64,000 nt of DNA. It comes from an uncultured Chthonomonadaceae bacterium. GTDB taxonomy: Bacteria > Armatimonadota > Chthonomonadetes > Chthonomonadales > Chthonomonadaceae. The notes under the pieces were generated by a model that worked only from the letters and a program-made list of their open reading frames with translations, had not been told where the DNA came from and made no database searches. The DNA lies in contig CAWIEK010000016.1 of the NCBI GenBank assembly GCA_963835065.1, forward strand, positions 1 to 64,000. The letters run 5' to 3'. Shown in pieces: positions 47,565-57,702 of this stretch. Within the stretch, counting starts at the first letter, position 1, and each line of letters opens with the position of its first letter. The position numbers and the translations under genes were made by a program.

Positions 47565-50500
47565 ATGCATCGCGGAACTGTATTGGGTTTTTATCAGGAT
47601 GCCGACACCGCCCGCGCCGTCTTGAAGCGGCTGCGCAGCCATCGGCTGTACCGCTCCGCGCTGCTGCGGCGACTGCCGGACGGCCAGACGCGCGTGGAAA
47701 CGGATTTGCCCGGCCTGCTGCCGCCGCTTGCCGGGGGCGCGGGGTTGGGACTGCTGATCGGCTTCGCGCTGCATTTGCTGTTTCCGATTTTGTTCGCGTA
47801 TCCGAGCGTGGGACAAGCGCTGTGCCTGCTCACAACTCTGCTTGGAAGCGTCCTCGCATGGCGCATGTACGCGATTACACCTGCCGATGTTGCCCTGTAC
47901 CGGGAGCGGCTTGTCCGGGATGAGGTTCTGGTGTTTGCGCGCGCGGGACGGCAAAAGGCCGCGCGCCTGCTCGACCTGATGCGGCAGGAAAGCGGCGACA
48001 ATCCTATCACTTTTGCCTTGTACGCCGGCGCGAAAGCGACGGAGGGCGAGGCTGCCGACGCGATTCACTATGAGCCGCTGCCGAGCGACCGTCTCGCGCA
48101 GGAAGCCCGAACGCTTGCCGCTGCGCACAAGGACGTGACTTGTTCTACAAATGGCAGGCCGCTCCAGCAGCGGCTTCGCGCCAGCGCCCGCGCCATTGCC
48201 CGCGTCCATGACCATCTCAGCGACATGTCCCGCATTGACCCCAACATCCTCCTCGCCGCGGAATGGCTGCTGGACAACAGTTTTGTCATACAAGGCCACA
48301 TTGACGACTTCCGCCGCAGCCTGCCACGCCGGTATGAGCAGGAGTTGCCCGTGTTGAGGGAACAGGGAACAGGGAACAGGGAACAGGAAAAAGGAGAAAG
48401 GAAAAAGGAGAAAGGAGAAAGCCAGTCACCGACCACCAACCACCAATCACCAACCCACCTCCTGCAATTCCTGACGCGGCAACTGAGCCGGTTTGGGAAC
48501 TGGCTGGCGACGGATGAGCGGTGGCGATTGCTGGCGGACAAGGTTCGGAACCGGGTGCAGAATGTCCGCCCGGATGCGCCGGAACTGCCCCTGCCCCGCG
48601 TGTACGCGCTTTCCCGCGATTTGATTGTTCATACGGATGCGCGCATTGACCGCGACAACATGCGGCAGTTTCTGGACGAGTACCAGAGCGTGACGCCGCT
48701 GACGATTGGCGAACTGTGGGCCGTGCCGCTGATGCTGCGGCTGCGGCTGATCGAACAACTGCGCGCCCTGTCGGTTCAGGTGGACCAACGGCAGCACGAG
48801 CGCGAACTGGCCGACTTTTGGGCCAACCGCCTGCTGACCGCCGCCCGCCGCGATCCCGACCAGCTGGATTTGTTTGTCGCCTATTTGCAGCGCGACATTG
48901 CCGCGCCCACGCCCCACTTTGCCGAACAGCTTGTGGAACACCTGTACGACGAGGAAGCCGCGCTTGCGCCCGTTCGCAACTGGCTGGAACGACGGCTGAA
49001 CATGCCCCTGCCCGACGCTTTTGCTCAGGAGCGCACCACGCAGGCGCGGCAGCAAGTCTCGCTCGGCAACGCCATTTCCAGCCTGCGCGAATTGGGGCGG
49101 CTCGATTATCCCAAGCTGTTTGAAGAGGTCAGCCGCATTGACGCCCTGCTGTACAGCGACCCTTCCGGCACGTATGCCCACATGAATTTCGCCACGCGGG
49201 ACCGCTACCGCCACGCTGTGGAAGAAATCGCCCGCCGCTCTGTGGATGCCGACGTAGACGAATTTGCTGTCGCCCACAAAGCCATTGAACTTGCCCATGC
49301 GCAGTCGGAGGGCGTTGCCTGCCACATCGGTTACTATTTAATAGACGCCGGACGCCCGCAACTGGAAGCCGAACTGCATAGTACGCCCCGCGCCCGCGTC
49401 CGCGTTCTGCGCTGGCTGGAAACGCGCGGCACGGCTGTCTATCTTGGTACGGCAATAGGCGCAACGACGGCCATTGTCACCACGCTTTGTATTCAATCCA
49501 CTTTTGCGGGCGCATCCCTTCCCTTGACAATCCTGCTTGGCCTGCTGGCGGTTTTCCCGGCCAGTGAAGTGGCGATACAGGTCATCAATTATCTGGTCAC
49601 GCGCCTGCTGCCGCCCCGAACCCTGCCCAAAATGGATTTTGAGCAGGGCGTCCCGCCCGATTTTCGTACCCTCGTTGTCGTGCCGATGATGCTGCTCACG
49701 CCCGAAAGCATTCAGGACGAGATTGACCGCCTTGAAATCCGCTATCTTGCCAACACGGACGACAACCTGCGCTACGCCCTGCTGTCCGATTACTCCGACG
49801 CGCCCGGTCCTTCTATGCCCGACGACGCCGAACGCCTTAACGTCGCTATGCGGGGCATCGAACAACTCAATTCCAAATATTCTGACGGCAAATTCCTGCT
49901 CTTTCACCGTGAGCGCGCGTGGAGCGAAACCGAAGGCCGCTGGATGGGCTGGGAACGCAAGCGCGGCAAATTGGAGCAGATGAACGCGCTGCTGATGGAG
50001 GGGAGGAAGGGAACAGGGGACAGGGAACAGGGGACAGGGAACAGGGGACAGGGAACAGGGGAAACTCAATCGGCAATTCCCTCCATGCAAATCCGCGCCG
50101 GCAATGAGGAGTGGCTGCTGGACATTCGGTTTGTCATTACCTTAGACGCCGACACTCAACTGCCCCGCGATACCGGACGCCATCTTGTGGAAACACTGGC
50201 GCATCCGCTCAACCTGCCAGTAGTTAGGGAACAGGGAACAGGGAACAGGGAACAGGAGACAGAAGGAAGTGATGAACGCGGAATGATGAATGATGAATTG
50301 AATTCTAACTCATCACTCATCACGCATCACTCATCACTTCCTTTCGTAGAACGCGGCTACACCATCCTGCAGCCTCGCGTCAGCACGAGTTTGCCGAGCG
50401 CGGCGGCGAGTTATTTTTCGCGCTTGTTTACGGATATGCGGGGAACCGACCCGTATACGCTGGCGGTTTCGGATGTGTATCAGGATTTGGCGGGGGAAGG

Positions 50501-56500: not shown

Positions 56501-57702
56501 TGGCGGAAACTATCGAAGCGCAGGCATGGGACGGCAATTGGTATCTGCGCGCGTTCTTCGACGACGGCACACCGATGGGTTCCGCGCAAAGCGACGAAGC
56601 CAAAATTGACAGCCTGCCCCAATCGTGGAGCGTCCTGAGCGGCATGGGCGATCCCGAACGCTCCCAACAAGCCCTGCAAGCCGTCGAGCAGTATCTGGTG
56701 AAGGACTTTGGGGAGAAGACAGAAGACAGAAGACAGAAGACAGAAGGAAATGCGCAAGAAGGAGAAGACCTATCAACTATCAACTATCAACTATCAACTA
56801 CTTCCGGGGGCATGGTCCTGCTGTTCACGCCGGCCTTTGACAAGACGCCGCATGATCCGGGGTATATCAAGGGGTATGTGCCGGGGGTGCGGGAAAACGG
56901 CGGGCAGTACACGCATGGCTCGCTGTGGGTTCCATTCGCGTTTGCCGAGCGGGGCGAAGGGGATAAGGCCTGCCATCTGCTGCGCCTGATGAACCCGGTA
57001 GAACATGCCCGCGTTCCCGAAGGCGTGGAGCGCTACAAGGTGGAGCCGTATGTCGTGGTGGCCGACATTTACAATCTGGCCGGGCAGCAGGGCCGGGGCG
57101 GGTGGTCGTGGTACACAGGTTCGGCGGGGTGGATGTACCGGGCGTGGCTGGAAGCCGCGTTAGGCTTTGAAAAGCGGGGCGCGTCGTTCACGCTTAATCC
57201 CTCCATACCCCGCGCCTGGGACGGCTTCACGCTGAAATACCGATTCGGCAGCGCCTTGTACGTGGTTCGCGTCGAAAACCCGGAGCATGTGGAGCATGGC
57301 GTCGCCCGCGTGGAATTGGACGGCAAGCGCCTGCCCGACAAAATCATTCCGCTAACCGCTTCCGAGCAGACCTACGAAGTGCGTATCCTGATGGGCGCGG
57401 AAGAACCAGTTGAAGCATCAATAGAACAACCAACGCAGGAAACGCCGGAAGAGAAAACCGAGGCGCATACGGACGAAAGCGCAATAGTAGCCACGTCCGG
57501 CGAAGCGGTCACGGCTCCTGCGACAGAAGCGCCGGAAGGCGGAACGGCGGAACCGAAAACAAAGCGCGCTTCCTCCCGGAAAACGGGCAAGGGAACCGGC
57601 AATGGAACCGAAGCGGGTACAGGGATGGAAGCCAGTACAGACGCGGACGGCATCGAACCTCCCGTCCCACCGGTTACGCCGCCTGCAAAGCCGGAAATGT
57701 AA
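47565..57702 (+). CDS. ndvB: Cyclic beta-1,2-glucan synthase (GT84 + glucoamylase-like + GH94); frameshift near 52015 inside a repeat insertion
   Basis: AAEWLLDN, GWERKRGK, ITLDADT, LLSHDLIEG, RQHRWVRGDWQ, LPPDNYQ, YDLLASEARL, SWSGTMFEYLMP, YQSGGAFGFRDQLQD, GDWNDG, GVRENGGQYTH, WYTGSAGW. Confidence 0.92.

Follow-up and report, generated by a model that had tools for sequence, protein, structure and literature searches.

Heptamer repeats are a long-standing and unexplained oddity of bacterial genomes, and the Anabaena gene nifJ reportedly carries an in-frame heptamer array. Heptanucleotide long SSRs include the cyanobacterial STRR and the GGGAATC repeats of Xanthomonas and Nostoc (PMC4692102), together with the TAACTGA repeats of Beggiatoaceae (PMC4679880); a genomic excess of heptamer SSRs is known, and slippage has been proposed as its source (Mrazek 2007, as summarised in PMC4679880). 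Other repeats enter coding sequence in different ways. Rickettsia palindromic elements, as reviewed in PMC10969869, are palindromes of about 150 bp with a conserved peptide for each family, and the in-ORF tandem repeats of Borgs (PMC9879509) have units whose length is in every case a multiple of three, almost every unit being confined to one locus. The repeats described here are, on well-supported grounds, a real variant of the known but unexplained heptamer class, with mismatched arms within genes and a stop-recoded arm that has spread; neither feature was found described in the literature searched, which lies outside subscription papers.

The window (the whole 64,000-nt stretch that was analysed, C16:1-64000) belongs to a genome of 8.0 Mb in 71 contigs, referred to here as G000, of a soil bacterium that is most likely an armatimonadote at the level of Chthonomonadaceae. 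Its Pfam content and its match to solved Cgs chains identify the gene under study as ndvB/cgs: the 5' ORF matches chains 8rf0 and 8rf9 with an E value of 7.5e-174 (phmmer), and the 3' part contains PF10091, PF06165, and PF17167 and matches 8rf9 with E=0. Homology extends over the full length, the conserved motifs of the catalytic region are present, and the predicted enzyme, known here from its sequence, has the full domain set and motifs of Cgs/NdvB (PDB 8rf0 and 8rf9), from which it differs by a C-terminal tail and by seven loops that together hold about 230 additional residues. The preliminary description had reported that ndvB keeps its motifs despite seven heptamer-repeat inserts, of which six are in frame and one contains the only frameshift. 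All seven are indeed present at or near the places it had given (Table 1), 464 of the 473 columns of at least 90% conservation are retained, and the sole frame break of the alignment lies within 51981-52074. Where at least seven unit types had been claimed, we counted nine: AGGGAAC, AGGAGAA, CACCAAC, recoded GAATGAT, ACTCATC, CAATCGG, TTCATCC, AGAAGAC, and CTATCAA.

Table 1. Positions in the window of the two parts of ndvB/cgs and of the seven inserts
Feature	Position	Strand	Remarks
ndvB/cgs 5' ORF (glycosyltransferase + transmembrane part)	47565..52130	+	out of frame beyond insert 4
ndvB/cgs 3' part (glycoamylase-like + GH94 domains, low-complexity C-terminal tail)	52075..57702	+	
Insert 1	48357..48587	+	left arms AGGGAAC 48357-48387 and AGGAGAA 48385-48421; right arm CACCAAC 48427-48455
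Insert 2	50001..50081	+	long AGGGAAC/AGGGGAC arm 50008-50062 and short CAATCGG remnant
Insert 3	50226..50340	+	AGGGAAC arm; stop-recoded GAATGAT arm 50264-50298 (DERGMMNDE); ACTCATC arm 50308-50338
Insert 4	51981..52074	+	AGGGAAC arm, purine spacer, CAATCGG arm; net +1 frame break inside
Insert 5	54695..54784	+	ACAGGGA arm and TTCATCC arm
Insert 6	56389..56470	+	CAATCGG right arm 56437-56470
Insert 7	56711..56803	+	AGAAGAC arm and CTATCAA arm

Extra length is found at all seven sites when the protein is aligned with 122 other NdvB/Cgs homologues, of which 7 come from relatives and 115 are distant ORFs, with inserts 1 to 7 adding 70, 23, 34, 24, 27, 24, and 32 residues, respectively. Insert 1 is longer than first given, with about 42 non-repeat residues following its arrays, and insert 6 comprises about 24 residues, the peptide NNRQSAIGN covering its right arm alone. 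The site of insert 7 shows zero length change in 117 homologues, and heptamer arrays occur in none of the 115 distant homologue ORFs. The inserts are not an assembly artefact: contigs from other public runs lead out of ndvB sequence into the arrays of sites 1, 2, and 4, and site 6 is spanned by such contigs, although the best of these runs may be related to the source of the window, and near-identical pieces weigh less than diverged ones. The left arm of insert 4 is present in a 93%-identical contig from another run, and site 5 measures 39 nt in a 94%-identical relative contig and 69 nt in the window, a difference of 30 nt that preserves the frame. Scans of metagenomes and genomes recovered no close ndvB relatives (the best match, to a Chthonomonadaceae bin, is 62%, and relative G002 has no match). 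In AlphaFold models of two segments, inserts 1-3 and 5-7 have pLDDT values of about 35-60, which are partly expected since no homologue covers the inserts, and the adjoining core is mostly above 90; the inserts lie in predicted surface loops. Six of the seven fold no better than shuffled sequences, insert 3 being the only one that still forms a hairpin (z -4.2). We also note that a low-complexity tail of about 100 residues ends NdvB both here (window 57390-57702) and in the sister genome G001; the two tails are unrelated to each other in sequence, and seven other relatives lack one.

Members of the family to which the inserts belong are found throughout the genome. Exact 7-mer arrays of at least three copies number 1,330 in G000, compared with 0-163 for the other periods between 4 and 15, and are therefore not due to chance. 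They use 68 unit types, have a median length of 27-33 nt (about four units), and drop sharply in number above 34 nt. A tolerant scan recovered 1,771 arrays forming 1,166 elements, of which our own Markov ORF model places 384 at gene edges and 456 in intergenic sequence, a total of 840 in a genome that is about 77% coding by the same model. The orientation of a unit as the first or the last arm does not vary, start and end registers are fixed, and the family is polarised, with a left-type arm first and a right-type arm second. Outside ORFs, 284 of 344 pairs are mirror images, mostly with unique loops of 50-100 nt, and 248 of 282 are located between co-oriented genes; terminal inverted repeats are seen in the intergenic members and are absent in most in-gene members. 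The 7-nt unit, the preference for about four copies, the presence of hundreds of copies per genome in inverted pairs and mostly non-coding positions, and the restriction of coding placement by stop codons are shared with the heptamer long SSR/STRR class as described in PMC4692102 and PMC4679880. Those papers report under-representation in coding sequence or positions mainly at gene ends, whereas 326 of the 1,166 elements here lie deep in ORFs, essential genes included; the more than 20 common unit families, the mismatched mosaics in genes, and the spread of a stop-recoded arm are further differences. AGGGAAC arrays are also found in other genera of the bacterial family (50 matches in G015, 19 in G023, and 11 in G011), most genera being without them, and the ndvB of G023 has no inserts.

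Elements within genes have lost the mirror symmetry, which only 14 of 172 in-ORF pairs show, and kept the polarity, 131 pairs being left-then-right, 10 right-right, and 5 left-left. Because a class defined by ORFs is circular with respect to stops, we repeated the analysis on 66 elements in 51 genes that lie between aligned anchors of one G001 protein. In this set, 61 of 66 elements have a length divisible by three (59 are open, and in 2 a stop lies between the anchors, with a nearby break as its probable cause) and 5 are shifted; stop-bearing units make up 1 of 123 arms, compared with 631 of 1,205 outside; and mirror pairs account for 5 of 41. Eight units that are stop-free on both strands are coding 328 times in the hydrophilic reading and 16 times in the hydrophobic mirror. 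Element copies do not contribute independently to such counts of frame, stops, and hydrophilicity, and P values computed on them are overstated. The mirrors of the common right arms TATCAAC, TTCATCC, and ACTCATC carry stops and that of the common left arm AGGGAAC is hydrophobic, which explains the arm mismatch within genes, and a bias of copying towards the A-rich strand could add to it. It is likely that the hairpin was lost in genes since only stop-free, water-loving peptides are tolerated there. In-frame elements are present in leuS, valS, metG, dxs, ligA, and ddl. The in-gene inserts are likely translated as disordered peptide loops.

The left arm GAATGAT contains two TGA codons per cycle, and in genes it is recoded as DERGMMNDE, with TGA TGA mostly read as CGC GGA (54 changes of TGA to GGA and 31 to CGC). 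That 100% of the stops are changed is circular for ORF-defined genes, and the argument draws on nothing more than the replacement codons being the same in different copies. The recoded arm 20-mer (with at most 1 mismatch) has 47 copies in G000, one of which is in ndvB insert 3, and none in 40 relatives, which points to spread by copying and not by local slippage. Spacers match another locus over at least 60% of their length in 40 of 51 in-gene cases versus 46 of 272 outside, and identical non-repeat linkers recur in unrelated genes of G000 only. Insert 3 resembles three other loci at about 90% identity over 110-115 nt, and for insert 5 a glycogen-debranching gene (C63:118882) holds a cassette of 97% identity over 70 nt.

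At sites 1 to 7, the NdvB of G001 (66% identical) has 85, 23, 7, 46, 6, 89, and 25 extra residues, all seven G000 sites coinciding with sites among the nine of G001 in a 3,000-residue protein. The G001 content is unrelated, with its own AGGAAAA and AACAAAC arms at site 6, an AACAAAC arm at site 7, other sequence at site 1, and non-repeat sequence at site 2; since unrelated inserts occupy all seven sites, the site persists while its content turns over. Length changes occur in no more than 3% of other homologues at sites 1, 3, 6, and 7, and at sites 2, 4, and 5 the length varies within the family. Over the whole genome, 47 of the 59 open sites have at least 15 residues between the anchors in G001, some of which may be native linkers in this two-genome comparison, and 17 of the 59 carry peptides in G001 that derive from repeats, for the most part from units of that genome, as judged from a hand-made motif list. 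Some new insertion or growth must also occur, because 23 of the 59 sites are more than 10 residues longer in G000 and at 4 G001 is almost without a loop. The commonest units of G001 differ from those of G000, and its array density per Mb is about one-eighth. Some in-gene mirror pairs change both arms together between the species (C29:13124 and C50:88956), and 3 of 4 G001 in-gene pairs are mirrors, albeit in a small sample; the mismatched in-gene arms may be particular to G000.

A plausible explanation of these patterns, and the one we consider probable, is that the ndvB inserts are coding members of the paired-arm family, copied as arm modules that overwrite tolerant loops and translated as disordered loops. 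Arm modules would move between existing elements by gene-conversion-like exchange using arm homology, incoming arms would replace existing tolerant loops, and selection on the peptide would decide which arms survive in genes, the resulting loops being mostly neutral. This model leaves the concerted arm changes at C29:13124 and C50:88956 unexplained, as they require a hairpin-coupled step. Construction of each array in place by polymerase slippage from chance seeds in loops would suit arrays that are near perfect, and slippage has already been proposed for the known heptamer excess; nonetheless it is highly improbable here, being disfavoured by the shared recoded arm, and array length has a ceiling at about 34 nt, the registers in which arrays start and end are fixed, polarity is retained in 131 of 172 in-gene pairs, and the same linkers and the same stop recoding at dozens of loci cannot arise independently. 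A further alternative is mobility of the kind seen with Rickettsia palindromic elements or MITEs, in which a transposase or retro-element newly inserts whole cassettes and both species were hit independently in the same permissive loops. Near-full-length cassette copies in unrelated genes, the roughly eightfold higher number of arrays per Mb in G000 than in G001, the four sites that are loop-less in G001, and the mirror arms framing all three PF05635 genes, which resemble a cargo-bearing parent, are consistent with it. We nonetheless think it unlikely, since 7 of 7 G000 sites coincide with the nine of G001, the elements lack a common consensus or peptide, duplications in their flanks are near the shuffled level, with a slight excess at 5-6 nt (at least 5 nt in 16 of 284, about 7 expected), and PF05635 was not found in G001 or G015, both of which bear arrays. 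Conversion-like copying and de novo insertion may both act. It is decidedly doubtful that a dedicated machinery writes and rewrites polarised, fixed-length arms at fixed sites, with selection having bred a stop-recoded, hydrophilic, hairpin-free sub-family that diversifies loops. Neither a driver enzyme nor a footprint of the copying step came to light, PF05635 having been examined as candidate cargo. The three PF05635 (23S rRNA IVS protein) genes are at C25:14102-14416, C8:32017-32325, and C33:57207-57524; their framing mirror arms of 7- or 8-mers were read by eye, the flanks shown lie outside rRNA, and the array scan recovers only 4 long-range mirror pairs around cargo genes. As a driver, PF05635 was rejected on account of its lack of co-occurrence with arrays, one unit having been counted across relatives.

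The frame break in insert 4 can be set against the background of breaks in the assembly. With 818 orthologue chains kept from 1,490 G001 proteins (called from 2.0 of 6.6 Mb), the G000 assembly has 110 frame switches in 882 kb of coding sequence, 6 of them near an element, and 90 of the 818 orthologous genes are broken. These include leuS, valS, and mfd, away from repeats, murD, at an element without a second close copy, and what we take, from their N-terminal motifs, to be rpoC, dnaK, and recA. This background predicts 1.26 breaks in ndvB, such that its frameshift is uninformative, and the break is most likely a sequencing or assembly indel error; no contig of the public runs bridges insert 4, and a third copy of its spacer with an intact frame was not found. 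Were the break real, the addition or removal of one repeat unit could turn ndvB off by phase variation: a 7-nt change alters the frame, the density of breaks is 4.5-fold higher at elements than in the background (5 in 8.8 kb versus 0.125 per kb), and the single break in 10 kb is within an insert. This is improbable, however, as both arms of insert 4 have the usual length of 30-33 nt, the assembly breaks genes off repeats and, in murD, at an element lacking a second close copy, and the background probability of at least one break among seven elements is 0.42. It is more improbable still that the inserts are cut from RNA as RNase III-type intervening sequences or passed over during translation, either of which would mend the frame of insert 4. 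The hairpins of intergenic members, the arms framing '23S rRNA IVS protein' genes, and the folding of insert 3 would be in keeping with such removal, but the in-gene members are without a hairpin, in frame, avoid stops and hydrophobic readings, and have recoded stops, which is the pattern of translated sequence. Elsewhere in the window, the upstream rnb gene is broken (47275) and a rhamnosidase is divided over three ORFs (60069-62560), with no repeats at the junctions shown.

The suggestion that the inserts are mobile repeats adding protein loops, like Rickettsia palindromic elements, thus holds in part. As in those elements (PMC10969869), in-frame repeat DNA in unrelated metabolic genes adds peptide to loops: the modules are common to unrelated genes, in frame, and in predicted surface loops. 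The recurrence of peptides in unrelated genes, which had also been claimed, is borne out for the C39, phhA, DUF1553, and MocA-like ORFs and fails for the rhaD-like one, where an array merely overlaps the stop codon. The likeness ends with structure, in that the inserts are low-complexity mosaics of interchangeable arms, mostly non-palindromic, rather than palindromes of about 150 bp, and in place of one conserved peptide absent from orthologues there are mosaic peptides at sites that the sister genome fills with other inserts. With the Borg repeats (PMC9879509), they share fast-changing, A-rich repeats in ORFs that likely encode disordered peptide; they differ in having a 7-nt unit, a frame held by total length, and modules common to many loci. 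G000 supplies testable constraints on heptamer repeats, namely fixed arm length and polarity, probable travel as modules and rewriting at persistent sites, and adaptation to coding through loss of complementarity and stop recoding. The requirements of the DNA mechanism become separable, as it needs polarity and about 30 nt, the hairpin being dispensable, at least in genes. A 7-nt repeat system is predicted to reshape loops in hundreds of proteins, essential ones included, and annotators should be aware that peptides such as REQGTGN and SSLITHHSS tag real genes as well as spurious ORFs.

Two other repeat types accompany the heptamers. Octamer arrays (123 exact ones genome-wide, with an example at window 47490-47538) form a smaller parallel family that also supplies in-gene modules, such as EEKKRRREEEK. 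Directly after the ndvB stop codon, at 57705-57860, is a different palindromic repeat (fold z -5.8), of which the genome holds many diverged copies (90 BLAST rows).
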